Below, in pieces: positions 3,065-43,796 of a stretch of 64,000 nt of DNA (the stretch's first letter is position 1; each line of letters begins with the position of its first letter). Source of the stretch: Naegleria gruberi (taxonomy: Eukaryota); assembly GCA_000004985.1 (NCBI GenBank), contig GG738891.1. One strand, 5' to 3'. Below the pieces are notes generated by a model that was not told the origin of the DNA, did no database searches, and saw only the letters and a program-made list of their open reading frames with translations. The position numbers and the translations under genes were made by a program.

Positions 3065-4162
3065 TTATTGTTTTCTATCAACTCTTGAAAATTCAATTAA
3101 TTTCTTAATAGAATCAACATGTTCGTTCATGGTTTCGTCTCCAATTTCTTTCACTTCATTGGTGAAAAGGTTCAATAATTGATTGAATTTTGAATTCCAT
3201 CGTTCATGTTTAGTTTCCCCATTCTTCATTTCCATCAAATAACCCTTCACATTTTCAACAAATCTAACCAAAGCAATGGCCTTTCGAATTCCATTAGTTT
3301 CGTAATAATTTCCAAGTTGATTTGCATTGATTTTAACCTGCTTCTCCTCTCTGACCTTCTTTCCTTCAACAGTCTCATAAGAAAGTGTTAATTTCACATT
3401 CGATTCTCCTTTAAAATCATTCTTTGCTTTCAATCTTAATAAAACTATTCCTCCCTTAACTCCTCTTTCATCTAATTGACTAGCAGAACAAGTATCAACT
3501 TTCATAATCTCGCCAGTTGATTCTCCTGCCATATTTGTTCCAAAACATTTTTCAATTTCATAATTTTCACATTCCAAACTCAACTTGACATTGTAACAAA
3601 TCGGTGTTACAATATAATTGAAATCCTGATTCAAAATCTTTGTAAAATCCTCAGTTGATTTAACAGAGAAATAATTACAACCACGAACTTGAGTCAATTC
3701 TTCAACAATATCCGAATTGAAATCTAAACCAATTCCAATAAAAGTTGAAAAGATATTATACGGACCAGAGTTTGCATCTTTTGTAAGAATATCGAGAGTG
3801 TCAGTTCCACCCACATTTGGACAAGCATCTGTCAAGTAAATAATTCTATTAGAATTGGATAAATCAGACGAATCTAGAGTGGAAAATAAATCAATTCCTC
3901 TTTGCATGCCAGCTTCAAAATTTGTAGATCCCTTCTCTTTAATCTTTAGAACAGTTTCCTTGAGCGATTTCTTATCTAAATCCTGAACAATTGTTAATGG
4001 AAGAAAAGTTTCGGCCTTGTCATCGAATAAAACAATTCCCAATCTTTCAAATTCTCTCAAATTGTCAATTATTTCACAAATTACTTGATTGGCAACTTGC
4101 ATTTTGGTTTTTTCCTTGTTAGACATGGCAGATCCCATTGATCCACTAATATCCAATACAAT
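3065..4162 (-). CDS. von Willebrand factor type A (vWA) domain protein, exon 2.
   Basis: The exon begins IVLDISGSMG, the MIDAS DxSxS motif preceded by a hydrophobic beta-strand. The acceptor AG lies at 4164-4163 on the minus strand. A long ORF continues to the stop at 3065. Confidence 0.7.
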   Translation of the reverse strand: MVLDISGSMGSAMSNKEKTKMQVANQVICEIIDNLREFERLGIVLFDDKAETFLPLTIVQDLDKKSLKETVLKIKEKGSTNFEAGMQRGIDLFSTLDSSDLSNSNRIIYLTDACPNVGGTDTLDILTKDANSGPYNIFSTFIGIGLDFNSDIVEELTQVRGCNYFSVKSTEDFTKILNQDFNYIVTPICYNVKLSLECENYEIEKCFGTNMAGESTGEIMKVDTCSASQLDERGVKGGIVLLRLKAKNDFKGESNVKLTLSYETVEGKKVREEKQVKINANQLGNYYETNGIRKAIALVRFVENVKGYLMEMKNGETKHERWNSKFNQLLNLFTNEVKEIGDETMNEHVDSIKKLIEFSRVDRKQ

Positions 4163-4210
4163 CTTTAGTTTACAATAATTATTAAATAATCATAACTAAA
4201 CAACACGTAC

Positions 4211-4501
4211 AACTAAATTCAAATCCCTTCTTTCATTCAAACCATCTTTACAACTGTGCAATCCTAATGCCAAGTGAATTTGTCTTTCCGCACTGATCGG
4301 ATCATGATCAACAGCAATCGAATAGGCAGTTTCCAATAATTTATCAGAAACCTTCATCACACCAGTTTGATAAAAGTATTCTTTCATAATTCCCTCGAAT
4401 GTAATGGAAGAATTGGAGGGTAATCTCTTTCCACAATTCAAAACCTCTTTAAAAGATTCGGAATTAAAAGCTCCGGAAGAAAATAAAGCTGCTTTCATCA
4501 T
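4211..4501 (-). CDS. vWA domain protein, exon 1 (97 aa N-terminal region).
   Basis: Real ATG at 4501-4499. A GTACGT donor is at 4210-4205. Splicing out the 48-nt intron (4210-4163) joins ...RRDLNLV to IVLDISGSM in phase 0 and reconstitutes a canonical vWA beta1 strand. Confidence 0.6.
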
Positions 4502-4671
4502 TTATTTTTTTGATTTCTGCAAGTTCAGTAAAATTGGATTTTACAATGGAAATTATCGGAAAACAATATATTATTCGAAACATTTCAGTTCTTAAGGCAA
4601 GTTTGATTTTTACAAGAATTTTGAAATAAGAAACAAGAAGAATTGAGGAAACTTTTTGTTACTGTAAATTA

Positions 4672-4690
4672 CCCGCTCATTTTTATTGAC
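4672..4690. repeat. Left terminal inverted repeat of the transposon.
   Basis: CCCGCTCATTTTTATTGAC matches the reverse complement of 7197-7215 with one indel. Confidence 0.6.
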
Positions 4691-4870
4691 GCTTGTTTTG
4701 ACGATTTTATAGTCATGAATGACGCCTTTGTTTATGCTTGTTAAGGTGTCATTGGGACGTTGTTGTGGACGTCAAAATGACGTTTTTTTTCGTCATTTTG
4801 ACGGTGTCAATTTGAGAGTCATTAAGACGTCAAAAAAAGCGTCCTCAATGACGTCTCAAAAAGTGTCTCC
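4686..4870. repeat. Subterminal GACG/TGACGTC repeat array, left end.
   Basis: At least 12 copies of (T)GACG or CGTCA within about 185 bp. Confidence 0.6.
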
Positions 4871-5309
4871 AATGACGTTGCAGAATGATTATTAATTTTT
4901 GATAAATTGAAATTTTATTGAACTATTCATAATTCTTACAAGTTGGAAATCCTTCATCTTGAACCATTTCACACTGAGTGAAACTCAATGCTGTGAAAGA
5001 TTCACACCGTGTGAATTAATATTGTAAAAGATTTCACACCATCAAAGATGACAAGGAAATTGACAAGAGTTTCTTATAAAAACGTGAAATAAAAATTTGA
5101 ATTGATATGTCTTGTAAATGAATTGAAATGATGTAATATAATTGATAACTGATACGACTTACTAGTATGTTGAGGTATTTTTTTTGAAAAATAGTTTAAA
5201 CTGGTTGCAAAAATAGAAAGTGTTTATTTTAGAGATGAAGCCAAATATGGAAAGACATTTAATATAATGTAAAGGCCATTTTGTGAATTGGTTTGAAGTG
5301 AAAAGAGCC

Positions 5310-6244
5310 NNNNNNNNNNNNNNNNNNNNNNNNNNNNNNNNNNNNNNNNNNNNNNNNNNNNNNNNNNNNNNNNNNNNNNNNNNNNNNNNNNNNNNNNNNN
5401 NNNNNNNNNNNNNNNNNNNNNNNNNNNNNNNNNNNNNNNNNNNNNNNNNNNNNNNNNNNNNNNNNNNNNNNNNNNNNNNNNNNNNNNNNNNNNNNNNNNN
5501 NNNNNNNNNNNNNNNNNNNNNNNNNNNNNNNNNNNNNNNNNNNNNNNNNNNNNNNNNNNNNNNNNNNNNNNNNNNNNNNNNNNNNNNNNNNNNNNNNNNN
5601 NNNNNNNNNNNNNNNNNNNNNNNNNNNNNNNNNNNNNNNNNNNNNNNNNNNNNNNNNNNNNNNNNNNNNNNNNNNNNNNNNNNNNNNNNNNNNNNNNNNN
5701 NNNNNNNNNNNNNNNNNNNNNNNNNNNNNNNNNNNNNNNNNNNNNNNNNNNNNNNNNNNNNNNNNNNNNNNNNNNNNNNNNNNNNNNNNNNNNNNNNNNN
5801 NNNNNNNNNNNNNNNNNNNNNNNNNNNNNNNNNNNNNNNNNNNNNNNNNNNNNNNNNNNNNNNNNNNNNNNNNNNNNNNNNNNNNNNNNNNNNNNNNNNN
5901 NNNNNNNNNNNNNNNNNNNNNNNNNNNNNNNNNNNNNNNNNNNNNNNNNNNNNNNNNNNNNNNNNNNNNNNNNNNNNNNNNNNNNNNNNNNNNNNNNNNN
6001 NNNNNNNNNNNNNNNNNNNNNNNNNNNNNNNNNNNNNNNNNNNNNNNNNNNNNNNNNNNNNNNNNNNNNNNNNNNNNNNNNNNNNNNNNNNNNNNNNNNN
6101 NNNNNNNNNNNNNNNNNNNNNNNNNNNNNNNNNNNNNNNNNNNNNNNNNNNNNNNNNNNNNNNNNNNNNNNNNNNNNNNNNNNNNNNNNNNNNNNNNNNN
6201 NNNNNNNNNNNNNNNNNNNNNNNNNNNNNNNNNNNNNNNNNNNN
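5310..6244. other. Assembly gap (935 N) inside the transposon.
   Basis: Run of n characters. The true element length is unknown. Confidence 0.99.
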
Positions 6245-6256
6245 CCAACCAATAAG

Positions 6257-6922
6257 ATGTCAACTAGAAAAAACAAATCTAAGGCAGCTGCTCCAAAGAG
6301 GAAGAATCAATCTGATGAAGATGAATCAAGTACTGATACAGATAATGATTCTGAACCAAGCAAGAAAAAACAATTTAAACCATCTTCCAGTAAACAACTA
6401 GTGAAGACAGTGAAGAAGACCATGTCAGTTCATGATTCAGATAGTGATGAATCCACCACTGAAGATTCAGAAAATGGTACTGGTGACTCCACAGAATCTG
6501 TCTATTTTCAAGTTCGTCACGTTAATGGAAAACGGGAATATGTGATTGTTCCAGAGCATGTCGATTACATCTTTGATTTGATAGATAAGGACAAAGCTTT
6601 TCCAGAGTTCATCAATGCCATTATCCAATGTGAAAAGGTATTAACTGACCTCACAAAAAGGTTTGCTCATCTATTTTCAGGGCTTGCATTCAACACTACC
6701 GTAAATGGTATAACTTATTCAATTCCTCCAGACATTATCAAAATGCTTATTGGTAATGTGACTCAAAAACAGTGCTTGGAATTGTTAGCACATCATCACT
6801 TCAAGAAACCTATAGGAGAACTCACAACTGATCAAAGAACAGTATGTAGAAAGTTCTTTGAAGCAAGGGGATGGGATAAAGAAAGTGTTCGGAAGGCAAT
6901 CAATAGTTTGATCAAAGAATAA
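6257..6922 (+). CDS. Transposon-internal ORF of 221 aa: a basic N-terminus (KNKSKAAAPKRKNQ) and an acidic tract, then a globular C-terminal part. Possibly an accessory or DNA-binding protein of the element, or the C-terminal part of a larger ORF lost in the gap.
   Basis: The ORF starts immediately after the N-run and lies between the TIRs. No DDE/DDD motif is visible in the sequenced part. Confidence 0.35.
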   Translation: MSTRKNKSKAAAPKRKNQSDEDESSTDTDNDSEPSKKKQFKPSSSKQLVKTVKKTMSVHDSDSDESTTEDSENGTGDSTESVYFQVRHVNGKREYVIVPEHVDYIFDLIDKDKAFPEFINAIIQCEKVLTDLTKRFAHLFSGLAFNTTVNGITYSIPPDIIKMLIGNVTQKQCLELLAHHHFKKPIGELTTDQRTVCRKFFEARGWDKESVRKAINSLIKE

Positions 6923-7140
6923 TTTCCAGACATGATGTTAAGCTTGATAGTCAAGCTTGTGAAATTTGTATTTTTTTTTTTAAAATTTTCAAAAAAATTC
7001 ACAAGTCTGAAATACGTCACCTCCTCCTTCACTGATTTTCATCATCAAAACAACACAAAACAAACAACAACAAATAAACAACACATTACAACATCAAGTA
7101 GAACACAACAGAATATCGATAATTAACTTTGGAGTAACTT

Positions 7141-7200
7141 TATGCAAAATCGTCAGCGATGACGTCAAAAAAAGCGTCAATCCACCATCAGGAATGACGA
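7141..7200. repeat. Subterminal GACG repeat array, right end.
   Basis: cgtcagcgatgacgtcaaaaaaagcgtcaa...aatgacga. Confidence 0.55.
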
Positions 7201-7215
7201 AATAAAATGAGCGGG
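7197..7215. repeat. Right terminal inverted repeat of the transposon.
   Basis: CGAAATAAAATGAGCGGG is the reverse complement of the left end. Confidence 0.6.
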
Positions 7216-7232
7216 TTAATTGGTGAAAAATT

Positions 7233-7249
7233 AAAGAGCAGAAAAAAAT
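7233..7249. repeat. 17-bp direct repeat AAAGAGCAGAAAAAAAT, copy 1.
   Basis: Identical to 7514-7530. Confidence 0.7.
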
Positions 7250-7513
7250 TTAAACGTTTATTAATCGTATGAACCCGACGGGTTCGTCTTGATGATATTA
7301 CGAATATTAAATAATAAATTCTTTCTTGTTGGGATTGCTTTGTTCATTTCTTGTAACTCTGTGGACACAAATACTTGGCTTGAACACCCTATGCTGGAAC
7401 CCCGGGTAGTATAGGGTACGGTGACTTAACCCGACGTAAGTATTGCGGCAACACACTGTGGTCTCAGGGTCAACAGTGTAGTTACTGGGTGGTACGACAT
7501 TTTTTTTGAGACG
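7250..7513 (+). other. 264-bp GC-rich insertion bracketed by the 17-bp direct repeats. Candidate small structured RNA gene or SINE-like retroposon.
   Basis: Local GC is well above the flanks. Contains the palindrome GAACCCGACGGGTTC and ends in T8 (cattttttttgagacg). Confidence 0.35.
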
Positions 7514-7530
7514 AAAGAGCAGAAAAAAAT
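7514..7530. repeat. 17-bp direct repeat, copy 2. It ends in the ATG of the downstream peptidase gene.
   Basis: Identical 17-mer; the final AT plus the following G form the start codon at 7529-7531. Confidence 0.7.
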
Positions 7531-8851
7531 GGGTAAATTCGAAACTCTGAAAACTGAAAGCATTCACTCACTGCAAAGCAAGGGACTATTTAGATTCGTC
7601 ATCATCGTGATGATGAGTTTAATTATGTTTTGTTCGAATATTGTTATCGGAAAACAATATATTATTCGAAACGTGCCATACTTTTCACAACAAACAGAAT
7701 ATTCGTGTGGAGCTACCAGTTTACAGATGGCACTTTCGTATTTTGATGGAAATTTTCATAGACAAATGAAAGAAGAGTCATTGTTAAAGGAAACAGTTTC
7801 GTTTCGAATAATTTCTCAAGAATCAATTGTAGATGTTGCTAGAACTTCCAATCATACAGGAACATGTTCATTAGACGTCATTAGAAGTGCCAGATTCTCC
7901 ACCATTAGTTCAACACCAATTTCTCAATATTATTTACAATATCCGAAACAAGCTCCGATGAACGGATGGTTTGGAATTGAGAATTCCCATAATTTATTGA
8001 ACAAATCTTTGGATTCAATTTACTATTTTGGAGGATTAATGACCATATACTATCCAGAAAGAGGTTCTTATTTGAAATCTGAAAAATGTTCTGAAAAGAA
8101 GGGAGGAGAAGGAAATGTCAAATGTTGGGTAAAAGAAATGATTGAATCCTTTTTGAAATTTGACATTCCTGTCATTTGTTTAATGTTTTATGATTTGAAT
8201 GATAGTGAAGGACATTACCGATTGGCAGTTGGTTACGAAACTAAACTAGACGAAAGTGGAAATGAAATTCCAACACATATTATTATGTGGGATCCTTACA
8301 ATCGAGAAGGAAATCCTCCAATTTCTAATTTTACAATTTCAGAATTTTGTAATTTGTGGAATTATACAGAATTGAGATTTGAGAATACTTGTTATAGACC
8401 TTATTTTGGAGCTGTCATGTATCCATTGGATATTAAGGCAATGGTTAGTAGAGAGGGACATTTGATGGTTGAGTATGGACATCCGAAACACTTGGTTTCG
8501 TCTGATTTTGTTTCGAAACATGTGGAAAAGACACTAGTGATAGACAATGTGGTGGCCAAGATTCGTATTTATCAAACGATTCCTAATCAAGAAGATATTT
8601 TGAAAGAAGTGGAAAGTGTTGATTTGCAAATGAATCCTTCCAGATTGAATTTTGGACAAAATCTTTCATTTTCTTGGAAATTACCATCAAATCTCTTATT
8701 GGAAAAGAATATTCGAATCAAAATTGGAATTTATGGATTAGTTTGTGATAAAACCTTAACTTGGCTCTATGAACCAAACACGGACAAGTTTAGTCAATCG
8801 TACAAATATTGCGATCAAGTTGGAGGAACAATTTTCATTAAAACAGATTAA
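7529..8851 (+). CDS. Membrane-anchored peptidase-C39-like (papain-fold) domain protein.
   Basis: N-terminal hydrophobic anchor (LFRFVIIVMMSLIMFCSNIVIG). The motif VPYFSQQTEYSCGATSLQMALSYFDG matches the C39-like Q...CG..SL.M.L.Y.G catalytic-Cys region, and EGHYRLAVGYE matches the His motif. Single 440-aa ORF. Confidence 0.6.
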   Translation: MGKFETLKTESIHSLQSKGLFRFVIIVMMSLIMFCSNIVIGKQYIIRNVPYFSQQTEYSCGATSLQMALSYFDGNFHRQMKEESLLKETVSFRIISQESIVDVARTSNHTGTCSLDVIRSARFSTISSTPISQYYLQYPKQAPMNGWFGIENSHNLLNKSLDSIYYFGGLMTIYYPERGSYLKSEKCSEKKGGEGNVKCWVKEMIESFLKFDIPVICLMFYDLNDSEGHYRLAVGYETKLDESGNEIPTHIIMWDPYNREGNPPISNFTISEFCNLWNYTELRFENTCYRPYFGAVMYPLDIKAMVSREGHLMVEYGHPKHLVSSDFVSKHVEKTLVIDNVVAKIRIYQTIPNQEDILKEVESVDLQMNPSRLNFGQNLSFSWKLPSNLLLEKNIRIKIGIYGLVCDKTLTWLYEPNTDKFSQSYKYCDQVGGTIFIKTD

Positions 8852-9168
8852 TCTTATTGGAAATATAATCTAAATTATTCTAAATTATTATGAAATTATT
8901 CTAAAATGATTAGAAACTATTTATATTGAAGCCATTTTTCGTAGATTGTTCTTTACAGTAGTGGCTTAATTATTATAGAAATTTGATCAATGAGATTACA
9001 AAAAAATTTGATGAATATTTATAGTAATTAAAACACATTATATTCGCTGTCATGATTTTCATTTTTTGTAAACTTGACAAAGAACCATTACATTCGTCTA
9101 ATCTCATATAATTGTGATTTTGCCTTTCGAATAGTTTAACAGTCAAAAAAATAATAACAAAATAAAAC

Positions 9169-16300: not shown

Positions 16301-19300
16301 AGACAGATACTTGGAATTTATAGATCTGGTAACCAAATGTTTCTAAAGAGACGTAGAGGTCAGAGTATTTATCCATACTGTATCTGATTTTTGGTCCACT
16401 CAATTGAGTCCATTCAATGATTGAATTTTCTGATTTGCATGAAGATTCTGACACTATTTTCTTGATGGTAATAGGAAATTGAGTAGTTACTTTTTCAATA
16501 GTTGTTTGTGGAACATATAATGCTGGAAGAGGGCTTTCTGCTTTTGAAAATATGGAAGAATATACAGTTGAGCTATTTACAATATTTCCCACCACAAGAG
16601 AAACTAAATATTTTCCTTGTGGAAGGGTTGAATCTAGCTTAATTAATGGAGTATTGGGGAAATTGAATGGAATAATTTGGAACACATGGTCTGTCTCATT
16701 GAACAAGGTCCAGTAATAGTCAAGTGGTGTATTATTTGGAGATATACTGAGCGAGCCATCAATGATAATCTCATCACAGGAGCTATAGAATTCTGAGAGT
16801 AGATTTATGGATGCTGTTGGAGCGATAACTTTTTCATTTTCACACCAAATGCCATAATATCCATTCTCACATTGGCATTGATTGTAATCTATGCATACAC
16901 CTCTTCCAGAACAAACATTAGAATCATTCGAAAGTAGAGAATCACATCGTGTCAACTCACAATTCACACCAACATGATTACTGGTGCATGTACAATTATC
17001 AAAGCTTGAACAATTACCACGATTTGAACACACCAAAGGATTGGTATTATTCAGACCGAAACAAGAGTATTGTTCACAACTTTCACCGAAATAGCCGTCA
17101 GAGCATTGGCAAGTATCCAAATCAATGCAATTACCCTTTCCAGAGCAAACAGTTTCTTTTTCACTTGATGAAATGTTGAAACATGTGGTCAACTCACAAT
17201 TAGCTCCATGATACTTTTCTCCACATGTACAATTATTGTAGGATGAGCAAAATCCTCTACCAGAACAAACCTTTGAATCGGCATGCTCTGTTCCATTACA
17301 ATCAAAATAATTACATAGATCTCCATAAGTTCCTAATTGACAAGAGCACTTATTCACATCAATACATTGGCCATTTCCAGAACACACTGTCGAGTTGTCT
17401 TTTTCAATACCAAAGCATGAAAATTCTTTACATTCCACACCAGTATATCCTGAACGACATTTACAATCATCAAAATCAACACATTCACCTCTTCCTGAAC
17501 AAACATTTTGAGTTTCATTGCTCAAAACACCAAAACAACTTGTCACTGAACAATCTAATCCGAAATAATGTGATACACATTCGCACTCATCTGTTTCAGT
17601 ACAACTTCCGTGCCCAGAGCAAACTCTGGAATCAGTTCTATTCATTCCATAACAAGAATAATATTGGCAGTTGTCTCCGTAATATCCTTCAGAACAATTG
17701 CATTGATTGAATCGATAGCAATTTCCTTTTCCAGAGCAAACTTGAGGATTTGATGAAGATACATTGAAACACACATAAGATTCACATTCTTCTCCATGAT
17801 ATCCATGCTCACATGAGCAATTATTAGGAGAAACGCATTGACCATGACCTGAACAAGCCAATGGTTCTGAATGTTGCACATTAAAACATGAGAAATTGTC
17901 ACATTCCTTTCCATAGTAACCAGATACACATGTGCAATTATCAAAATCAACACATTCACCTCTTCCAGAACAAACACTTGAAGAATTGGAAAGTTTGGAG
18001 AAGCAAGTAGTGATGGAACAGTTCAAATCCATATAGTTCTCATCACATTGGCATTGATCCAAGCTGGAACAAGTTCCTCTTCCAGAACAAACATTGGAAT
18101 CTGAAGAATTGAATCCAAAACATGTGTAAAGTTCACAAAATTCACCAAAATATCCATATTCACATTGGCAATTATTAAATGTTTCACATGAACCATGCTT
18201 GGAACAAACTGAGCTATTGGAAGATGAAATTCCATCACAAGTAGTTTCTTGACAGAATGAACCAAAGTAATGTTCTACACATTCGCATGTGTCATGTTGC
18301 TTGCATTCACCACGTCCATTACAAACTCTTGAATCATTACTTAATAATCCCTCACAGGATGTCACTTGACATTTATCACCCCACCAATTGTTTGAGCAGT
18401 GACATGTATCGGGTCCAACACATATTCCATTTCCAGAACATGATATGTTTAAAGTTTTCGATTCATTAAAACATGAAAATTCGTCACAATTTGATCCAAA
18501 ATAATCAATTTCACATTGACATAAATTAAAATCAATGCATTGACCATGTGAGGAACAAACTAGATTGGTTTGATTCGATGGGATGGAAGCACAGGTGGTG
18601 AGTTGACATTCTTCTCCGAAATAGTTTGGTAGACAAAAGCATTCGTCAAGTTTCGAACAATTTCCTCTTCCAGAACAAACACTTTTGGTTTCAGTATGAT
18701 TAATTCCAAAGCAAGCATAATTTTCACAATCCATGCCTGAATAACCATTCTCACATTCGCAAATTTCAGATTTTAAGCATTTTCCGTGTTTGGAACAAAC
18801 TGAACTATTTAAATGCTCAATTCCATTACAATAAAATTCTTCACAATTTGATCCAAAATAACCAGTATTACAAGTGCAATTGTTAAAATCATTACAGTTA
18901 CCATTTTTGGTACAAACAGTCGAGTCATTTGACATTATTCCAAAACAAGAGGTTACGTCACATGCCAATCCAAAGTAATTTTCTTGACATTCACAATTTC
19001 CAAAATCTGAACAATTTCCTCTTCCTGAACAAACTAACACATCATTTTGAGTAATATTGTTACATGTGTAATATTGACATTCATCACCAAAATATCCAAA
19101 TTTACAAGAACAAGTATTGTAATCAATACATTTTCCTTTTCCAGAACAAGCTCGTGAACTGGAAGATATTTCAGCACCACAACTTGTCAATTGACAATAA
19201 TCTCCAAAATAGTGAGCTTGACATTTACAATTATTGTAAGAAGTACAATTTCCTTTTTGGGAACAAACAACAGAAGAATTGGTATTGTTAATGCCATTAC

Positions 19301-22300
19301 AAGTATAATATTGGCATTCTTCTCCGAAATATCCATCATTACAACGACATGAATTGTAATCAATACATTGGCCGTTAGAGGAACAAGCAGTTTCGTTTTG
19401 GTTGGAATATTCGAAACATTCGAATATCTCACAATTGAAGCCCCTGTAATTAAGCGAGCAGTTACATTGATTGTAATCAATGCAATTACCCTTTGATGAG
19501 CAGACTGTTGAATTTAGAGATGATACTGAGCTACATGTGGTCAACTCACAATTTTTTCCAAAATAATTTTCTTCACAAGTACAATTATCGAAACTTGAGC
19601 ATTTTCCTCGAGAAGAGCAAACTTTAAAATCGACATTTGATATTCCATGACATGAAAAATATTGACATTCGTCTCCAGAATATTCATCATTTTCACAAGC
19701 GCAATTATTAAAGGAAGTACATTTGCCGAAACCAGAACAAACTGAAGAGTTATAAGATTCAATTCCATTACAAGTGGTAATTTCACAACTCAATCCAAAA
19801 TAATTCATTTCACATTGACAGGTGTCAAAATCAACACAAGCTCCATAACCAGTACAAACCAAACTGTCATTACTCAATATTCCATTACAACTTGTCACTT
19901 GACACATTGATCCAAACATATTTTCCTTACATTCACAAGTATTTACATCAAGACATTTGCCACGACCAGAACATGACAAGTTGGAGAATTTGGAAATTTC
20001 AAAACAATTGAAATTTTCACATGAATCTCCATAATAATCAGCTGTGCAATTACAAGTATTGTAATCTATACATGTTCCCTTTGATGAGCAAACAGAACTT
20101 TCATTGGATTGAATATTATTACAAGTGGTCAATTCGCAATTATTTCCAAAATAGGAATCAATACAGGTGCAATTATCAAAACTCGAACATTTTCCTTTTG
20201 AAGAACAAACAGATTCCAAAGTATTGTTCACATTGAAACAAGTATAAAATTGACAATCATTTCCAAAGTATCCTTCGTCACATTCGCAATTCTCAAAACT
20301 TTTACAATGACCTCTTGATGAGCAAACTGAGGAATTGTAATGTTCAATGCCATTACAGTTAAATAATTCACAATTGGTTCCATAATATCCTTCATTGCAT
20401 TCGCAGAAATCAAAATCTGTGCAATTTCCTTTTCCAGAACAAACATTAGTTTCGTTTGAAAGTGTTGAATTACAACTGGTCAATTGACATTCATCTCCTA
20501 AATAATTAAGGAAACATGAACAATTATTTGTTGAATAGCATTCTCCACGTGAATGACAAACAGATGAGTTGATATTCAAAATGTCAAAACATTTGAATTC
20601 AGAACAATCAGAACCAAATGAATTTTCAAAACATTGACAGGTGTCAAATTGTGAACAAACTCCATTTCCAGAACATGTCAAATCTGTTACATTGGATGGA
20701 ACTCCAAAACATACAGTAACTTGGCAGAATTGACCAAAATAATTTTCAGTGCAATTACAACTATCTGTTTCAATACAATTACCACGTCCTGAACAAACAA
20801 TTGATTCATTACTCAATGTTCCATTACATTTGTATAATGAACAGTCAGCTCCGTAAGCATCTGGTTGACATTGACAGGAATTCACATCAGAACATTTGCC
20901 TCTGCCAGAACAAACTAATTGTGATTGATTTGAAGGAATGGAAAAACAATCAGTCACTTGACAATAATCTCCATAATATCCATCTCTGCATGAACATTGA
21001 TTTGGTGATAGACATTCTCCTCTTCCAGAACAAGTAATTGTTTCATTACTAAAAATGGAATTACATATTGTAACTGAACAATTCAGTCCAAAGTAATTAA
21101 AATCACATTCACACAAATCTGTTTCTGAACAAATACCATGTCCAGAACAAACCAAAGATTCACTATTATTCAAACCAAAGCAAGTGTGGAATTGACAATT
21201 CTCTCCATAATATCCCTCAGAACAATTACAATGATTGTAAGAAGAACAATCACCTTTTCCAGAACAAACACTGTTATTGGTCATATCAAGTCCAAAACAA
21301 GATGTTCTCTCACAAAATTCACCATAGTATCCATCCGTACAATTACAAATATCTTTTGCAACACAATTTCCATTGGAATTACAAACACTTGTCAAATTAC
21401 CAAAAGTTCCATTACATTTGGATATGGAACAATCCTCACCAAATGCATCTGGAAGACAAATACATGAATCTATATCTGAACAATTGCCTCTTCCTGAACA
21501 AACTGTAGAGTCCAAGTTGAGTGTGCCAAGACATGAGAATTGAGAACAAGTTATTCCTGAATAACCTGGTTTACAAGTACAATTATTGAAAGAAGAACAT
21601 AAACCGTGAGAGGAGCATACTTGAGTGAAATTGGAAACAATATTTTCACAAGTCGTGAGCTGGCAGAATGGACCAAAATAATTTGCCGTGCAATTACAGA
21701 TATCTGGATTAATACACGAGCCACTTCCGCTACAAACAAGGGAATCATTACTTGGAATACCATTGCACAATGTAAATTCACAATTTGTTCCATAAATTTG
21801 AGAATTATTGCAATGACAATTGTTAACATCTGAACAAACGCCCCTTGAGGAACAAACTGATGAGGAATTTCTGTTAAATCCAAAGCAATCATATTCTTGA
21901 CAGTCAGATCCATAGTATCCTTCCTCACATTCACAATTATTGTATTGAGTACAATTACCGCGACCTGAACAAACAATTGTGGAATTTGAAACGATATTTG
22001 AACACGTTGTGAACTGACACCATTCACCAAAGTAATGTTTGGAACAGTTGCAAACTTTGAAATCGGTACAAATACCATTCTTTGAACAGACTAATGAATC
22101 ATTTGCAGTAATATTGTTACAATATGGAATTTCACAATTCAATCCAGTATAACCATATTTGGAATCACAATTACAATTATTATATGAATCACAACTTCCA
22201 TGTCTACTACAAACACGTTGATCATTAGATCCAAAACCATAACATGTTGTAAAATCACAAAAAGTTCCAGCATAATTCAAGTCACATTCACAAACGTCCA

Positions 22301-25300
22301 TGTCAACACATTTTCCAAAATTATTACAAACAAGAGATGAGTTTGAAGAGATCGAATCACAAGTAGTAAATTCACAATTCGATCCAAAATATCCTTCTCT
22401 ACATTCACATCTATTGTACTCTGAACAGATTCCTCGGCCACTACATACAGACCTATTATTCGAATCCACTCGGTCACAAGTTGTAAGTTCACACCAATCA
22501 CCGAAATAATTCTGAGAGCAGTTACAATAATTTGGACCATAGCAAGTACCCCTGGAATTACAAACTCTTGAATCATTGCTCATCGTTCCATTACAATATG
22601 TCAATTCGCATTCTAATCCAAAACTAAACTCATTACACTCACACTTATTGTAATCAACACATTTGCCATTTTTTGAACAAGTTTCATTGGAATTAAAAAC
22701 TCCAAAACATGAAAATTCGCTGCAATTAAACCCAAAGTATCCATAACTGCATTCACAGGTATCGTATGCAGTACATTTACCCTTTCCATTACAAACTTGA
22801 GAATGTTGTGAATCAACTCCATAACAACTGGTCAACTCACAAAAGGAGCCCCAATAGTACGGTTCTATACAAGAGCACACATCAGGATTAGAACAGTTGC
22901 CTCTACCAACATCAGTACACTTTCCAATTAGTCCATTACATATTGGAATATCACAATCTGAGCCACCATAACCTAAAGTCTCATTACATGTGCAATTATT
23001 GAAATTTTCACACAATCCTCTCAAATTACAAACCAATGGTGAAGTGTTTTCAATGAGATTACATGTTGTAAATTGACACCACTCTCCATAATGACCCTCT
23101 TCACATGAACAAACATCGGTTTTTGTGCATTTTCCATGACCATTACAAACAAGAGTTTCATTTCCCAAAGTGCCATTACAATACAATACTGAACAATCAA
23201 CTCCAAAAGTGTCTGGTCTACAAGAGCAGGTATTGAAATCTGTACAATTTCCATTTCCAGAACAAACAGTTGGAGAGTTTGGAAGCAAATCAAAACATGT
23301 GAATAAATTGCAGTCCTCTCTGACATATGGTTGTAAAGGGTCAAAGGTTGATGGTTGACTGAATTTTGCTTGTTTCAAAATTAAATAACCACCTTCTGTA
23401 CAGGTTGACCAAATAGCTCCTTGAATATTATCTGAAACTATGAAATCGTGTCCATATCTTGCAATTACAGTTCCATGAACATTTCCAGAAAAGGTATTTC
23501 CATGAATTGCTGGATTGTAAACCCAATTTGCATTTCCAGAGCTGAAATAATAAGTCAACCAAAAAACATTTCTATAGGTAGCACATTTCAGATAGGTAAA
23601 ATCGGCGCCAAAATAGTGTACGAAAGGAAGCTTAAAGACCACTGGTTCAATTCCTACAATTGTAAACTTTTGGCCATTGATTGTCCATCCATTTTCCATG
23701 CAATAGACACCTCCTCTGTTGATGATAATGTTTCTACCCATGTCAGTGTCTGGATTTTTTATCATGTAATCACAAGGAAGGGCCAGAAGCTCCTGCATCT
23801 TATTAGAAACTTGTTGAACTAATTCTAAACCGTAATTTTCTGAACTGTTTGTAACTATAGCACTTCCATTGGCAACATAGGGATAAACTGGATCTGGATA
23901 AACATAATTTGGAGGATTAATGACGAATGAAGGTATTGCAATACTAGCAGAAAGTGGCGCGTTATCCAAACTATTCTTAACTAAAACTATTGGAATGTTG
24001 GAGATTAATTTATAACCAGCAAATATATCATTTTCGCACAAGGTTCCAGAAAAGCCAGCACTACAAGTACATTGATCAAATGCATAGCAACGTCCTCTTC
24101 CAGAACAAACTGAACTATTCGTATTTTCAATGCCGAAACATGAAGTAAATTGGCAGAAAGTTCCATAATAATTTTGAGAACAGGAGCAATTATTTGGAGC
24201 AAAACAAGCACCTCTTCCAGGTGCAGTACAAATTCCTACCAAATTATTACAAATAGGAATATCACAATTAGGTCCGCCAAATCCCATTTCTGTCCTACAT
24301 GTACAATTATCGAAATAGTCACAAATTCCACTACTGTTACAAACAAGAGGTGAATATTTGGAAACTCCTGCACATGTTGTAAACTCACAAAAAGTTCCAT
24401 TGTGTCCAAAGTCACATTGACATGTATCCTTGGCCACACATCGTCCGTGTCCACTACAAACATTTGAAACATTACTAAGAATTCCATTACAAAAGGAAAG
24501 TGAGCATTGAGGACCATAACTATCTGAATTACATATACAGGTGTCAAAATCTACACATTTACCCCTTCCAGAACATGTCATATTTGAAGTTGACACAATG
24601 CCATAACAATTCACACGAGAACAGAAAGTTCCATCATAATACGAATCTTGTGGATTAAATGTTATAGGTGCTGACAGTTTTACATCTTTAAAATTGAGAT
24701 TTCCTTTAGAATTTGGTGAATGAATCATCAAAGATCCTTGTATGTCACCTGTAACTGTCAAATCAGCATTGCTATTTGCGATCATTGTTCCTTGAACAGT
24801 TCCAGAAATAGTTAAATTAGAGTTTGCATCAGTGGATAGGAAGAGTAAATTTCTATAAGTTGCGCACTCAAGATATGAAACCTTGGATCCAATATAATTA
24901 AAATACGGAGCTTTAAAGACAACTTGTTCAGTACCTATTATGGTTAAAGACATTTTGTTAATTGTCCATCCTTGCTTCAAGCAATAAACCATTCCACCTC
25001 TAATAGTGATGCTAGTAGTCAATTCCAAGTCTGGATTAGTAACATTAACTGTACATGGTAATGCTATTAATTCAGTTACTTTTTTTGTTAATTCTTGAGA
25101 AAGAATTTGTCCGCTAGATGTTGTAGTATTCTTAATGACTGCATCTCCATTCGAAACATATTGGAATTGATACTTTTCTGTAACCATTAGTGGAATTGCA
25201 ATACTGGCCAATAGATATGAATTGGATCTTGAGTTTTTTACCAAATTTAGTTTCTTATTGGTGATGAGTTTGTATCCAGCAAAAAGATCATTTTGACAGT

Positions 25301-28300
25301 TAGTGCCAGAGAAACCTGCTCTACAAGAGCATGTATTGTAATCTGTACAATAACCATGTCCACTACAAACCATCGAATCATTGGAAATAAGCCCAAAACA
25401 AGTAGTCAACTCACAATTCACACCCAAATATCGTGAAGATGAGCATGTACAAGTATTAGCATTCGAACAAGTTCCTCTTCTCGAACAAACATTAGGATTT
25501 GAAGCATTCAAACCGAAACACATGGAAACATTGCACCAAGTTCCAGTAAATTTCGAATAATCAGCGCAAGTGCAATTATTGAAAGGCCAACAAGTTCCAT
25601 GCCCACCACAAACTAATGAAGAATTTGAAGATGAAATGGAAGCACAAGTTGTTTGATTGCAATTTGGTCCAAAATAATTGGATTTACAGGAACAAGTGTC
25701 AGTTGCCAAACAACTTCCCAATCCATTGCAAGTTTGTGTGGAATTACTCCAAATGCCAAAGCATTTCTGAATGGAACAATTCGTTCCATAATATCCATCG
25801 TAACATTTACATGTGTCAATAGCAGAACAAACACCTTTTCCACTACAAACATTTGTTGAATTTTTGAGAATTCCAAAACATTTGTAAATTTCACAATTAC
25901 TTCCAGAATATCCTGTCTTACAAGTACAATTGTTGTAATCAATGCATTTACCAAATCCTGAACAAGTTAGTGAATTATTTGATTCAATTCCACCACAAGT
26001 TGTCAAATCACAGAATTGACCATGATAACGTTGTGAACAGTTACAAACATCTGGATAGATACATGAACCATGAGTATTACAAACTGATGAAAGAGAAGCC
26101 TTTGTTCTATTGCAAATAGGAATTTCACAATCTAATCCAGTATAACCAAACTCTGAACTGCAATTACAATTATTGTAAACTTGACAAGAACCTCTTTCTC
26201 TACAAGCCAAGGAAGAATTTGATGAAACACCATTACATGTGGTTAGCTCACAGAATTTTCCGTAATAATGAGCATTACACTCACAAATGTCTTTGGCAGA
26301 ACAAATTCCTCTACCAGAACAAACAGTTGATATGTTACTGAAAATTCCATCACATTTAGATATGGAACAATCACTTCCATAGGCATCCTCTGAGCATACA
26401 CAAGTGTTATAATCTATGCATTGTCCTCTTCCATGACATGTACTATTTAAATTTGAAGAAACATTATAGCAAGAAGTGTAATTACAAAAATCTCCGATAT
26501 ACTTTTCATGAGTATCAAAAGTTAATGGTACAGCAAGAGAAACTTCATGTAAAATTGAGGTAGAGCTTCCTGTTACCCATAATTGACCATCAAACGGTCC
26601 TATTACCGTCATTGATCCAGAATAATTGGGAATGTACGTTCCAAGAATTGGTGGTAAATAATTTGTCAACTTGTTTCCTCCTTCAATCACAGTGGAACCA
26701 CCAATTATCCAGAAAAAGTTTCTATGGGATGCACATTCCAGTAGCAATATGTTTGCATTAGTAATTGTAAGAGACTGAACTTTGAAAATCACTAGTTCAG
26801 TACCAATAATTACAATTCTTTGGGACGAGTTGATTGTCCAAGTGAAATCAAAACAAAATACCCCAGATTTTCTAACAACAAGTTCTTTAGGTATTTGTGA
26901 TGAGCTGGTAAATCGTTGAGTGCAGGCCATTGCTATCAAGCTAGTTCTTTTTCTCTTCATTTTTTGAATAATCACATTTGACAGCGAGATAGAACTTTTA
27001 GTCATGGTTGCCTTTCCCTTGGATTTTAAAGTAATTCCGGTACTACTCATAGAACCATAAATAATACTTGATCCAAAGTACCTAGTTAAGCTGTTTACAA
27101 CTGGCTGATAATAGTTGTTCGAATATTCAATTTCGAATACACCTGGAGTATCAGAAATGAGACCATACCCAGCAAACATATCATACATGAATCTTTCACA
27201 ATAGATTCCATCATATTCGTCCTGACAAGAGCATGTTTCGTACAAATTACAAGCTCCATGTCCATTACAAACAAACGAATCATTCGAAGCAGTTTGGTTA
27301 CAAGTTGTCAGTTGACACCAATCACCATAATAATGATCATTACATAAACAGCTATTAGGGGATGTACACTTTCCGTGTGAGCTACAAACATTCGAATTAT
27401 CGCTATAAGTTCCATTACAAATTGTAATCTGACAATTCAATCCAAAATAATTTGGAATACAGGAACAAGTATTTGGGGCCATGCATGAACCTTTAGAAGA
27501 ACAAGTTGAATTCAACAAGCTAGATACTCCATTGCAATCATACTTATTACAAATTGTATCGTAATAACCTGATTTACATGTACAAGTTTCGAATGCAGTA
27601 CAAGTACCATGTGAGGAACAAACGGCCGTGTTATTCGATTCAGTTCCATTACAAGTAGTTACCTCACAATTAACACCATAGTAATGTTCTTTGCAGTGAC
27701 ATGTATTTGGTTCTGTGCAGTTACCTCTACCTGAGCAGACTTTCGAATCAGTGGCAGGTTTAGAATAACAAACAGGGATTTGACATTCAGATCCAGTATA
27801 TCCCTTTAGAGGATTACAAACACAAGTATTATAAGGCCAACAAGTACCCCTTTCATTACAAACGGTGGTGTTTGTGGAATTAATTCCAAAACATGTTGTA
27901 AATTGACATTTGAAGCTTTCGTAATTTGGTTTACAGACACAGGTGTCAGTATCTACACATGTGCCTTCTCCGCTACAAACATGTGATACATCATTACTTA
28001 AATACCCATAACACTTGGAAATTGAGCAATCATTTCCATAATATCCATCTCTACATTTACAATTATTGTAATCTAAACATTCACCTCTTCCAGAGCAAGT
28101 TGTGTTTGAATTTCTATTGATTCCATAACAATTAAATTCTTGACAATTATTTCCGTAATAGTTCGTCTTACAATCGCACTTTTCAAAGGCAGAACAAGAA
28201 CCATGAGATGAACAAACAGTTGAATTTGTTGAATTAATTTCTGAACATGTTGTCACTTGACATAGATCACCAAAGTAATGATCTGAACAATTACATACAG

Positions 28301-31300
28301 AAGGAGAGATGCAAGAACCATGTGCACTGCATACTGCACTACCAGTTGCCAAAATTCCTTTACAAATAGGAACTTGGCAATAGCTTCCTCCATATCCATA
28401 ATTGGAATTACAAGAACAGTTTTCATATTTGATGCATTGTCCTCTTCCACTGCAAACATCTGAAGAATTGCTGGAAATACCTCCACAAGTAGTCAATTCA
28501 CAGAAAGTTCCATAATAATTAGCATTACAAGAACAAGTATCTGGTCCTACACATTTTCCTCGAGTGGAGCAAACTGAAGATGTATTGCTATATGTGGAGT
28601 TACATAAGAACAAGGAGCAATCTAATCCAAAAGCACCTTCTAGACACTTGCATGTATCAATATCGACACAAACACCCTTTCCTGAACAAGTTGTATTTGA
28701 GTTGGATTTTTCATTGTAACATGTTGTAAAGTTACAAAAATCTCCAACTATTTGATCATAAGGATCAAATGTTATAGGAGCTGTAAACTTCACATTACTT
28801 AATTCTATCATCCCTAAATTCCAAATCTGACCTTCAACAAGACCACTAATTGGCAAATAGTCAACCGATGAAACAAGAGTTCCATACAGAGGACCCACAA
28901 CACGTGAAGTGAAATTCACAGACTTTCCTATGAACCAATAAACATTTCTAAATGACGAACATTCTAAATGAATCATTGAAACATTCTTATAATCAATACT
29001 TGGTGCTTTGAATACAATTGTCTCTGTACCAATTATTGTAATCTTTGTAGAAGAAACTGTTAAAGTTGAATTAAAGCAATAGACTCCTCCCTTTCTAATT
29101 ACCATAGAATTTGCAAAGAATGATAGAGAATTTGATATGTAATAGTTGCATCTCAATAGATTTAACTCTTGAACTTTTTCTTTCATTTGTCGAAGCAATT
29201 CTATACCAATTGGTTGACTTGTATTTGTAATGATAGCATTTCCATTAGAAATGTATTCGTATTGACCTTGAGAAACATTCATTGATGGTATAGCTATACT
29301 TGCCATCAAAGGGGAATTAGTTTGCAAGTTGATTTTTACATTGATTTTCGACTCACTGATTAATTTGTATCCAGCAAAGTAATCATGAATGAAAAGTTCA
29401 CAATTTGAACCATTATAACGAGTTACACATTCACAGATATCATAATCTAGACATTTTCCGTTTCCAGAACAAGCTAATGAAGAATTAGAAACCTCGCCAA
29501 AACATGTTGTCATTTCACACAAACTTCCCAAATAATTGCTATCACATGAACAGAGATCTGTAGAAGTACATGATCCGTGAGAGCTACATACAGAAGAAAC
29601 GTTGCTAAATACCCCGTTACATGTAGTTACTTCACAAGTATTTCCATAGAAATTTGTATTGCATTCACAAGTGTCTATATCAATACAATTTCCATTTTTG
29701 GAGCAAGATAAACCAGAGGCCATTCCTATTCCAAAGCAATCATATTCCTGACAAATCTTACCATAATAACCTTCCATGCATGAACAATTGTTAAAATCTG
29801 TGCATTCACCATGTCCAGAGCAAACCAAAGAATCATTTGAACTGATTCCATCGCATGTGGTCAACTCACATAAATTTCCAAAGTATGTGTCACTGCAATT
29901 ACAATAATCCAGCAATACACAATTTCCTCTATGGTTACACACCGTTTCATTGGTAGATATTATACCTTTGCAATATGTAAGTTCACATGAAAATCCCTCA
30001 AACCCTTCAAAACAAGTACAATTCTCAGCCATCGCACAAATTCCATTTCCATTACAAACAGTTGTGTCATTTGACAATACTCCACCACACAAGGTTTCAG
30101 AGCATGTCTCACCAAAATAGTTCAATTCGCAAAGGCAACTGTTTGTACTATGGCAAGAACCTCTTCCAGAGCAAACAGAACTGTCATTACTCGAAATACC
30201 ATTACAATAGGAAATTTCACACATCGCTCCCTCATATCCTTCTTCACATTGACAAGAATCAATATCTAAGCATTGACCCCTTCCAGAACAAACTTTACTA
30301 TTGTTCAAAGATAAACCGAAACAATTAAAAATTTCACATTCTTGTCCATAGTATCCTTGGGCACATTCACAATAATTGAAAGAAGAACAACTTCCTCTCA
30401 TGGAACAAACTGATGTAGAGTTGGATTCTAATCCAAAACACGTGGTTGATTGACAGAATTCTCCATAATAATTATCTGTACAATTGCAAATATTAACATC
30501 AATACATTGACCTCTTTCTGGTTGAGTGCAATAACCAACCAATCCATTGCACGTTGGAATATCACAATTGGATCCTCCATAAAGAAATGATGCATCACAA
30601 GAGCAATTATTAAATTTCTCACATGAACCTCTTTGATTACAGGCATTTGGTGATAAATTTGAAATACCATCACAAGTTCTGAATTGACACCAAGTACCAT
30701 TATTTCCATATTCACAAAGACAAGTATCTGTAGAGATACATTGACCATTTCCACTGCATGCATTCGATTCATTTCCAAGTACTCCATTACATTTGGAAAT
30801 AGAACAATCGTGTCCATAACTTTCTGAAGGACACAAGCATGCGTCCAAGCCAACACATAATCCCCTTCCTCCACAAACGCTCGCCTCACTCGATAACACT
30901 CCAAAACAATAGGTACTTAAGCATTGTGCAGTAATATAGGTATCATATGGATTGAAAGTTATTGGCGGACTAAACACGAGATCAAAAACAATCAATTGAG
31001 TTCCTCCGACATACCAGATTGCTCCTTGGACATTGTGGTAAACCTCCAAGCTGTAATAAGGAGAGGCTCCTATCACTGTACCATGAATTGTTCCTGTGAA
31101 AAAGTTGCCATTCAATCCTCTATCAAATGTCAACCAGAAAAAGTTTCTGTAAGAGGCACATTCCAAGTAATAGAAAGTGGCTCCATAGTAGTAGACAAAA
31201 GGAGTTTTGATTACAACAGGTTCTGTACCAATCACTACAAAAGTATAAGATGAATCTATGGCCAATCCATTTGGAAAACAATACACTCCTCCATGTTTGA

Positions 31301-35222: not shown

Positions 35223-35295
35223 GTACCCTTGGCTCAATTGGAAGAGCATCGGCCTACGGAGCCGGGGGTTGTGGGTTCGAGTCCCACAGGGTATA
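35223..35295 (+). tRNA. tRNA-Arg (anticodon ACG), 73 nt, no intron.
   Basis: Cloverleaf by hand. Acceptor GTACCCT/AGGGTAT (G-U at 1:72). D-arm GCTC-AATTGGAA-GAGC. Anticodon arm TCGGC-CTACGGA-GCCGG, the same loop as known eukaryotic Arg-ACG. T-arm GTGGG-TTCGAGT-CCCAC. Discriminator A. Confidence 0.85.
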
Positions 35296-37179: not shown

Positions 37180-37260
37180 GCAGGGGTTCCCGAGTGGTCA
37201 AAGGGGGTAGACTCAAGTTCTACTGCGCAAGCTTCGTGGGTTCAAATCCCACCTTCTGCA
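37180..37260 (+). tRNA. tRNA-Leu (anticodon CAA), 81 nt, long variable arm, no intron.
   Basis: Acceptor GCAGGGG/CTTCTGC (two G-U pairs). D-arm CCC-GAGTGGTCAAA-GGG. Anticodon arm GTAGA-CTCAAGT-TCTAC. 12-nt variable arm. T-arm GTGGG-TTCAAAT-CCCAC. Discriminator A. Confidence 0.85.
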
Positions 37261-41139: not shown

Positions 41140-41698
41140 CTAATCCATTTTAATTGACAATTCTTTTTCCAATTCCTTTCCAAATTCAGAGTGAAATCTA
41201 TAAAAACTGTCGAGCATGTTGTGTTCACACACTTGTTGAATTTCATTGAAAATTGAAATTGAGATGATGCTTTCCAAATTGGTTCCGTTCATTGAATTGT
41301 AGATTTCTATAATTTCTGGAATACCATTTGTAGATCGAGCAATGTTCAATTCGAGAGGAGCTCCCAATATTACATAGGTCTTTACAATTGTTCTGAATAA
41401 TTCGACTCGTTTCTTATTCGATTTGATCATTTTGAATTGTTCAATGGCATTCCACATCATGACATCTTCAGGACAATAACTCTTTTCATTGAATAAAAGG
41501 AATTTTGAATTCCACTTTTTAGAGGTCAAACATTTCTTGATGTGATTCGAAGAGTTTCCTCCAGAACTTTGAGAATCTCTTGGTTTTGAAGAGGAGGTAC
41601 TTCTTTGATAGATAAAAACTGGAAGGAAATGAGCTACAAATGTATCCCATATACATCCAAATACAATAAACATTTGCCATGGAAAGAAATAGTCAACT
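41140..41698 (-). CDS. 7TM-RGS protein, copy A, exon 2 (TM7 plus RGS domain).
   Basis: A 48-nt intron (41699-41746) with acceptor AG restores the codon TT+A=Leu and continues VDYFFPWQMFIVFGCIWDTFVAHFLPVFIY (TM7). The RGS box follows: KWNSKFLLFNEKSYCPEDVMMWNAIEQF...ILGAPLELNIARSTNG...EHNMLDSFYRFHSEF. Compare the RGS consensus AP.EVNID and DSY.RFL.S. Confidence 0.6.
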
Positions 41699-41746
41699 CT
41701 TTACAATAAATGTTAACTATTTAAAAACTACTAAAAGGTAACTTAC

Positions 41747-42927
41747 AAAGTATTAATATCAGTAAAGAATGAAGGTATGGCATACAATAAACTTGATAAC
41801 AACCATCCTACACAAATTAAAAACAGCTCCAACTTAATTTTCCACACATCATTCTTCATAAACAGAGCTAGCACAAATAATCCAAAAATAATCAACACAT
41901 AAACTCCAAAATGAATTGCCATAATCACCAAATCAAGTGTTCCATTTCCACATCCTTCCACCGAAAGTAAATGAGTGCCCCGAACGAACGAAGATACTGA
42001 GCTATTCAATCTATCTGTTTCAGCAATAATGGCATTGTAATAATCTGCAACTCCAACTGAAAAGTAAATTATCAAGTGAATTCCATAAACAACCAGGAAG
42101 AGTAATCCAATGAATTTGGAGCTTGTGAAAAATCGATAGATTCTCAATTTTTGTTTGTCAAATTTGGAAGAACTCAATCTTGATATTTCTTGGCTGTTTG
42201 TAGAATTTTTGGAGGTTTTTCTTTTAGGAATTTCTACTTGGATGTGTGAATCAGCATTGGTTTGTTTAGTTTCAAGCTGTGAATTAGAATCAGTAGTAGT
42301 TTCTTCTTGATTATTCACCAAAGCAAGTGAACTAAACGATTGTGAAATGGAAACTCCACTCAAACTCTGCAGCTCCACACTATTTCCATTATTTCCACTC
42401 GATCCTTCCACCATAAAACTACTTAGATCATTCAACTCCATGCTTTGGCTCAATAACTTTCGTTTTCCAATTTTCACTTTCAATTGATTCATCCAAGTCA
42501 AGGCAATCAATCGAACACATCTCCCAATGATAATGGCAGCCAATCCAGGCACTGCCATCCAATAGGTGAAGGTAAATAGAAAGCACGGATAGGTCTTTCT
42601 GGAAATGACAACTCTCAACAGCTGAATTAATACGAAAGCATACGAAGTTAAAGTTCCCAGAACCATCAGAGCAGGATTTCTGGCAATGGATATGTAGTTA
42701 ACCTCCTTGTTGCCTATTCTGTTGGTTTTTAGTTTCCATTGTTTGTAGAAGAGGCCAATTAGACAGGCAATTACCATCACTGTGTAGAACCCAAGAAATA
42801 AACCAGCCGAAACTCGACTTGTGGGATAATCATCACATAATCCTCGATAACTCGTGTAGCCCATTTCAAGGAGAATAGGATGACATGCGGCTGATGTATC
42901 ATTGATAGAAGAAATAGAATAGTTCAT
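41747..42927 (-). CDS. 7TM-RGS protein, copy A, exon 1 (TM1-TM6).
   Basis: Real ATG at 42927-42925. Six hydrophobic helices with a Ser-rich loop between TM3 and TM4. GTAAGT donor at 41746-41741. Confidence 0.6.
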
Positions 42928-43720: not shown

Positions 43721-43796
43721 CTAATTCACAATTATTTGCAAATCAAATTTCAATTACAATATTTCTTCTTCCAATTTAATGGATGTAACTACTTAC

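Follow-up and report, generated by a model that had tools for sequence, protein, structure and literature searches.

Positions 4672-7215 of a 64,000-nucleotide stretch of the Naegleria gruberi genome (contig GG738891.1, assembly GCA_000004985.1; hereafter the window) are a copy of a cut-and-paste (class II, terminal inverted repeat) DNA transposon, and its boundaries are correctly placed. A terminal inverted repeat (TIR) transposon had already been proposed here from the letters of the window, and this proposal is borne out by a diverged copy at another locus that ends on the same terminal base. On balance, the element is somewhat more probably than otherwise an En/Spm-like two-gene transposon making 3-base-pair (bp) target duplications, with the window copy as a non-autonomous deletion derivative. 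Membership in the CACTA superfamily is not established, as the termini do not read CAC(TA) and the signal of a TNP2-type transposase is weak. The window is AT-rich (~33% GC) and contains runs of N at 1977-2026 and 5310-6244, the second of which lies within the element.

Element ends and a second copy at another locus

The 12-mer CCCGCTCATTTT occurs exactly twice in the window, in inverted orientation, with the plus-strand match at 4672-4683 and the minus-strand match at 7204-7215; the chance expectation is ~0.13 matches with up to one mismatch allowed. Past this core both ends read ATT after a 1-nucleotide (nt) indel. When the left end was compared with the reverse complement of the right end, 21 extra bp were found after the core of the right end, and similarity resumed as ATTGACGCTT[G/T]TTTTGAC and then GTCATnnnTGACG, across two indels of 21 bp and 9 bp. 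The inverted termini described in the original prediction are therefore a real repeat of 15-16 bp from which similarity runs on, imperfectly, for a full length of ~60-70 bp. The outermost bases read CCCGCTC...GAGCGGG and so have the CCC...GGG form of piggyBac-type termini.

Short repeats with a GACG core are dense inside both ends, as had been claimed. The pentamer TGACG or its complement CGTCA is found 51 times in the window, at a background of 0.2 per 250 bp; 15 of these sites fall within the ~400 bp at the two ends of the element, 10 at 4687-4877 and 5 at 7151-7199. The arrays are asymmetric and contain sites on both strands, an arrangement seen in the subterminal regions of CACTA/EnSpm elements. 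Stacking of the oriented sites gave the unit (A/T)TGACG(T), with GTCA often placed 3-4 bases upstream so that a split palindrome is formed; the form TGACGTCA is also present, and the full palindrome GACGTC occurs four times (4768, 4826, 4850 and 7161). A further small cluster of TGACG sites near 53.1 kb was considered as a related element and rejected.

The flanks of the element read ...AAATTA/CCC...GGG/TTAATT..., the same letters as reported originally. The trinucleotide TTA is directly repeated at the two boundaries, and 3 bp was the sole matching length among those from 2 to 8 bp. Such a match is expected by chance at an estimated ~2% given the base composition of the window. A target site duplication (TSD) of 3 bp is also characteristic of CACTA/EnSpm elements, and is here seen in one complete copy. 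The predicted pre-insertion sequence is ...CTGTAAATTAATTGGTG..., and the reconstructed empty site, AAATTAATT, includes TTAA.

The second copy was found through the open reading frame (ORF) of 221 amino acids (aa) in the right half of the element. The protein encoded by this ORF (P0001) has a 489-aa relative (P0002), whose gene lies on a Logan contig of 2967 bp (hereafter L001) assembled from run SRR28981358. This contig presumably comes from a different Naegleria or a closely related organism. Over 969 columns, positions 1865-2813 of L001 are 77.8% identical to window positions 6272-7215, and the homology stops exactly at the terminal ...GAGCGGG, after which the two sequences are dissimilar. 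L001 continues there as AACTGTCAAGG..., and the window as TTAATTGG, leading to a C39-like peptidase gene. Because the flanks beyond the shared end are unrelated, the two copies lie at different loci; this speaks for mobility and settles the boundary. In L001 the right flank reads AACT, neither TTAA nor TWA, and therefore the target is not strictly TTAA. L001 holds the right terminus; the left end and left flank lie beyond the contig.

In L001 the end of the element abuts an open frame (2814-2967) with a weak match to positions 47-89 of the Pfam Trypsin profile PF00089 (E 0.0048), beginning just past the expected position of the catalytic-His motif. This copy may interrupt a serine-protease gene.

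Conservation between the copies is not confined to the coding sequence. The last 229 bp of the element (6987-7215) align with L001 without gaps at 83% identity (K = 0.19). The 64 bp directly past the stop codon are 52% identical, and the flanks are unrelated. Nearly invariant parts of the terminal block are a 54-nt stretch at ~7026-7079, a box CTTTGGAGTAACTTTATG at ~7129-7146 and the TGACG sites closest to the terminus; the right-end TGACG/CGTCA sites as a set are kept in L001. For the ORF the corresponding values are dN = 0.20, dS = 0.38 and dN/dS = 0.51. Since divergence in the terminal block is below that at synonymous sites of the ORF, the block fits a cis-acting transposon end. The conserved 22-mer CTTCACTGATTTTCATCATCAA was absent from GTDB genomes and viral contigs in a DNA scan.

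The accessory gene and a putative transposase gene

The run of 935 N at 5310-6244 makes up 37% of the 2544-bp element, and the earlier statement that the interior is mostly gap was an overstatement. To its left, in the arm at 4881-5309, no ORF longer than 26 aa is found on either strand; minus-strand frames running into the gap start at 5224 and 5259. To its right, the 221-aa ORF (6257-6922) is 100% identical to the N. gruberi hypothetical protein NAEGRDRAFT_58999. Its frame stays open upstream to the gap edge at 6245, and a tblastn match reaches residue 254 of P0002 at window base 6245, the first base past the Ns. The window ORF thus aligns to residues 254-484 of the 489-aa protein, with ~253 codons (~760 bp) missing. 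Because the frame is open to the gap and aligns in this way, the 221-aa ORF is a truncated gene model, the C-terminal half of a ~480-aa protein. The annotation of NAEGRDRAFT_58999 should be corrected accordingly, from a free-standing 221-aa host gene to a transposon gene cut by an assembly gap.

The original prediction had noted that the 221-aa ORF has no DDE signature and had put the lack of a visible transposase down to the gap. The former observation stands and can be extended, in that the ORF has no Pfam match, PF13843 (DDE_Tnp_1_7) included, in an element whose interior is partly gap; the ORF, however, is not complete. As to the latter, the missing half of the ORF (~760 bp) together with a 55-bp spacer of the kind found in L001 accounts for ~815 of the 935 N. 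The gap is therefore nearly filled, and the window copy is probably without a transposase gene if the gap estimate is roughly right.

The protein encoded by the truncated ORF is referred to here as the accessory protein. One true relative, P0002, was found by phmmer (HMMER) among 1.84 billion representative proteins (E 3.8e-78, 67% identity, alignment covering P0002 residues 265-484). Word-indexed protein searches returned the query only, both for the 221-aa ORF and for P0002; for the latter the candidate list was swamped by low-complexity words. Two metagenome scans and two viral protein scans gave no relative. Exact-protein look-ups with the window ORF and with the peptidase matched no contig, in an index that does not include the N. 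gruberi genome. Neither P0001 nor P0002 has a Pfam match, a PDB sequence match or a Myb/SANT domain. The part encoded in the window consists of an acidic/basic low-complexity linker followed by a C-terminal alpha/beta domain of ~140 aa, residues 81-221 of the window ORF. An AlphaFold model of full-length P0002 was unreliable (predicted local distance difference test, pLDDT, 37.6); the C-terminal 141 aa were modelled moderately (pLDDT 64) as two beta-hairpins and a helical bundle. From the architecture of the element, DNA binding may be suggested for this protein.

A second gene is present on L001. On its minus strand, positions 1-1011 form an ORF of 337 codons that reaches the contig edge without a stop and starts 55 bp from the start of the P0002 gene, in divergent orientation. 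It contains a zinc-finger-like motif CxxC...HCxC (IHYCRECKDF...HTHCSCEKIW), followed 83 residues later by LNGDGVSPFKKSLNNFYNFILQFNEMSPSNRKKSTNNFLWAILPRKPDKIDIEIGLKVIMNDL; the motif series after the zinc-finger-like part reads LNGDGVSPF...NEMSPSNRKK...FLWAILP...IDIEIGL. This series resembles how the DDE domain begins in TNP2/CACTA transposases (DGFNPF...YNLPP...LLIPGP...DIDVYL). Two TNP2-like sequences, both placed by Pfam in PF02992 (E 3e-72 and 2.9e-101), were used for comparison. Pairwise BLASTP of trimmed fragments gave E 7e-4 with the motifs in the predicted register, ~80 aa of the domain being on the contig; hhalign gave E 0.085. On the same stretch Pfam reported a sub-threshold match to DUF7082 (E 0.001-0.0085). 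No homologue of the fragment was found in 5.8e9 clusters by word-indexed search, and no PDB sequence match was found.

Insertion site and neighbouring sequence

The features of the element are listed in Table 1. The insertion lies between two divergent genes, in the short intergenic sequence that separates a vWA-domain gene (minus strand, ATG at 4501) from the C39-like peptidase gene (ATG at 7529). The ATG of the latter is 313 bp from the right terminus, in agreement with the distance of 300 bp given originally. As the ends of the element are rich in TGACGTCA and stand in a shared promoter region, they could alter expression of both neighbouring genes.

Table 1. Features of the Naegleria gruberi element in window coordinates
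Feature	Position	Strand	Remarks
Whole element	4672-7215		2544 bp; termini at both ends, right boundary matched by second copy
Target duplication, left copy (TTA)	4669-4671		equals 7216-7218
Left TIR core, CCCGCTCATTTT	4672-4683	+	imperfect repeat reaches ~4740 with indels
Left subterminal repeat region	4684-4880		10 TGACG/CGTCA sites, both orientations
AT-rich internal non-coding stretch	4881-5309		no similarity to L001
Assembly gap, 935 N	5310-6244		predicted to hold N-terminal ~253 codons of accessory ORF and upstream region
Accessory protein gene, C-terminal part	6245-6922	+	annotated model NAEGRDRAFT_58999 starts at ATG 6257
Conserved right subterminal block	6987-7215		ungapped alignment to L001
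Right TIR core, AAAATGAGCGGG on plus strand	7204-7215	-	L001 homology stops exactly at 7215
Target duplication, right copy (TTA)	7216-7218		equals 4669-4671

The peptidase gene is an intronless ORF of 440 aa (7529-8851) with an N-terminal Peptidase_C39_2 domain (E 1.4e-08). It belongs to a bacterial-type family, and horizontal acquisition in Naegleria is possible. Two direct repeats involve this gene. A 29-bp exact repeat, TTATCGGAAAACAATATATTATTCGAAAC, is found at 4553-4581, in intergenic sequence 91 bp to the left of the transposon, and at 7644-7672, inside the peptidase coding sequence (IGKQYIIRN), with no similarity past the 29 bp; it may represent filler DNA from double-strand-break repair. 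A 17-bp exact repeat, AAAGAGCAGAAAAAAAT, at 7233-7249 and 7514-7530, brackets 264 bp of higher GC content (7250-7513) directly upstream of the peptidase ATG. This segment resembles another insertion, one that made a long target duplication, and without it the transposon end would stand ~32 bp from the peptidase ATG. The segment has no Rfam match and no other copy in the window, and its predicted RNA fold is no better than that of shuffled sequences (z -0.22). Rfam and tRNA scans of 4000-9000 returned nothing.

Elsewhere in the window, diverged units of ~117 bp (39 codons) form a single, very long array over ~16800-32500; it is rich in ACA/GCA on the plus strand, corresponding to Cys codons on the minus strand, and appears to be a giant gene for a cysteine-rich repeat protein. 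An inverted duplication (52414-52866 and 60123-60547) has arms ~7.2 kb apart that match over 362 nt at 97% and 60 nt at 88% identity, and one arm adjoins a short minus-strand gene that is profilin-like by eye. A tandem duplication of ~2 kb (41266-42742 and 43288-44819) shows 75-93% identity between its copies. Two tRNA genes, tRNA-Arg(ACG) and tRNA-Leu(CAA), are located at 35223-35295 and 37180-37260.

Placement among known transposons

The original prediction had preferred a piggyBac-like insertion at TTAA, with a left TTAA that has since become short by one base. The element has the CCC...GGG termini that fit the piggyBac rule, a right flank of TTAA, and an AT-rich target in which the empty site holds TTAA. 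The left flank, however, is ATTA, which demands an extra deletion, and the right flank of L001 is AACT. The partner gene on L001 also fails to support it, as the 337-aa fragment of its product has no match at E <= 1 to PF13843 (piggyBac), PF13359 (Harbinger) or Plant_tran; this negative result is the firmer for piggyBac and Harbinger because both domains would largely lie within 337 residues. P0002 likewise has no PF13843 match at E <= 1. piggyBac elements normally carry a single gene and no dense subterminal repeat arrays, whereas a probable two-gene layout and dense arrays are found here, and the piggyBac reading is now scarcely credible. The PIF/Harbinger (PHIS) type, originally named as the alternative, combines a DDE_Tnp_4 transposase with a second, DNA-binding protein and inserts at TTA/TAA with a 3-bp duplication. 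It retains some appeal, insofar as the flanks are most simply read as a 3-bp TTA duplication, which is perfect in the window copy, TIRs of tens of bp are typical of the group, and the present element, like Harbinger, appears to have two genes; the second protein of some related lineages is also without Myb/SANT (PMC12730594). It is nevertheless improbable. The motif DGVSPF of the L001 fragment differs from the expected GAxDGTH, the accessory protein has no Myb/SANT match, and the L001 flank, AAC, is not TWA. Harbinger transposases are ~350-450 aa long, so the 337-aa fragment should span most of a DDE_Tnp_4 domain, of which it gave no signal. Kolobok elements, which are class II, have been reported from Naegleria and in some lineages encode a second protein, have TTAA duplications and 5'-RR...YY-3' termini (PMC9587614). 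This assignment was rejected given the CC...GG (YY...RR) termini, the 3-bp duplication and flanks other than TTAA/TTAA.

Two further explanations were weighed. The ORF could belong to a non-mobile host gene whose flanks carry transcription-factor sites and, by chance, an inverted repeat: TGACGTCA is a bZIP/CRE site of the classic kind, the annotation treats the ORF as an ordinary gene, and a single copy is known from N. gruberi. This is very unlikely in view of an inverted 12-mer pair far beyond chance, the perfect 3-bp duplication at its flanks, a terminal 229 bp more conserved than synonymous sites, and the placement of the L001 copy in another context, in or beside a trypsin-like ORF, with homology ending at the exact terminal base. 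A rather better case, though still on the doubtful side, can be made for a different or undescribed superfamily, in which the putative transposase of L001 is unrelated to the CMC group or the ~480-aa orphan is itself the recombinase of a single-gene element. Both proteins are orphans, with two members for the accessory protein in 1.84e9 representatives and no relative of the L001 fragment in the clusters searched, and neither has a significant Pfam or PDB match; the termini are unlike CACTA, and the window copy appears to carry the orphan ORF alone. Against a recombinase, the orphan combines small helical domains with a long linker that is disordered and acidic/basic, and a nuclease-like motif is not evident in it. 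Of the superfamilies considered, moreover, CMC best fits both the pattern DGxxPF...NxxP...ILP...IDI and the distance between the two D residues, and the pairing of a 3-bp TSD with subterminal repeats is a classic trait of En/Spm.

The En/Spm-like two-gene reading is accordingly the one pursued here. What defines a CACTA element is a set of TIRs, a TSD of 3 bp, two ORFs and an asymmetric arrangement of subterminal repeats; the second protein is family-specific, non-homologous between families, and binds the subterminal repeats, as TNPA does in En/Spm, where both proteins are required for transposition (PMC2613891, PMC4158355). By analogy, the minus-strand gene of the L001 type, of which the N-terminal 337 aa are available, would encode a TNP2/CACTA-type DDE transposase that has D258 and D336 as its first two catalytic residues and cuts at the CCC/GGG termini, and the orphan protein, like TNPA, would bind the TGACG subterminal repeats and draw the ends together. 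The window copy would have suffered an internal deletion in which both ends and the accessory gene were kept and the transposase gene was lost, and it would move solely when a full-length copy supplied the transposase.

Several points weigh against this assignment. The termini CCCGC...GCGGG, common to the window copy and L001, are not the CACTA...TAGTG of En/Spm, nor of the CAC...GTG form. The TNP2 family was picked by eye ahead of testing, Pfam gives no Transposase_21 (PF02992) match for the L001 fragment, and a longer BLAST pair in the same register, which pairs D336 with the second catalytic D, in INDFPA, had an E value of 0.99, so that the link is statistically insecure. With the family chosen by eye and weak statistics, TNP2 is a consistent lead and not a demonstrated membership. 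L001 ends before the left terminus, and its minus-strand gene is a putative part of the element. The gap length is the assembler's estimate, and the copies compared are one from N. gruberi and that on L001, with the TSD seen in the single complete copy.

It is also possible, although this is put forward tentatively, that the elements represent an undescribed heterolobosean lineage, be it a superfamily of its own or a branch deep within CMC that has CCC termini, with a transposase missed by current profile models and an orphan second protein of a new sequence-specific DNA-binding kind whose targets are the TGACG/TGACGTCA arrays at the transposon ends. The literature searched gave no account of this family in Naegleria; Repbase may already catalogue it. 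What is gained is a defined DNA transposon family in Naegleria, for which the exact ends, a duplication of 3 bp and a candidate motif for protein binding are in hand and which could serve an organism whose genetic tools are few at present. Apart from the definition of the family, the biology is that of an ordinary class II element.

Compared with En/Spm (CACTA, CMC) of maize and its relatives Tam1, Tgm and Plavaka, the present element differs in host, a heterolobosean amoeba, and in its motif TGACG, which is unrelated to the En/Spm 12-mer. The En/Spm genes are nested and alternatively spliced, whereas those on L001 diverge from a 55-bp spacer, and the L001 fragment, as noted, is not recognised by PF02992. 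The two systems share short TIRs of ~12-13 bp, the 3-bp TSD, and subterminal arrays in which a short motif recurs in both orientations and unequally at the two ends. A DGxxPF-type first-D motif is seen in the putative transposase of L001, and a transposase gene would be paired, as in En/Spm, with a fast-evolving, family-specific second gene, with a putative pair in L001 and the second gene alone in the window copy. Deletion derivatives that keep their ends, as the window copy probably does, are common in En/Spm.

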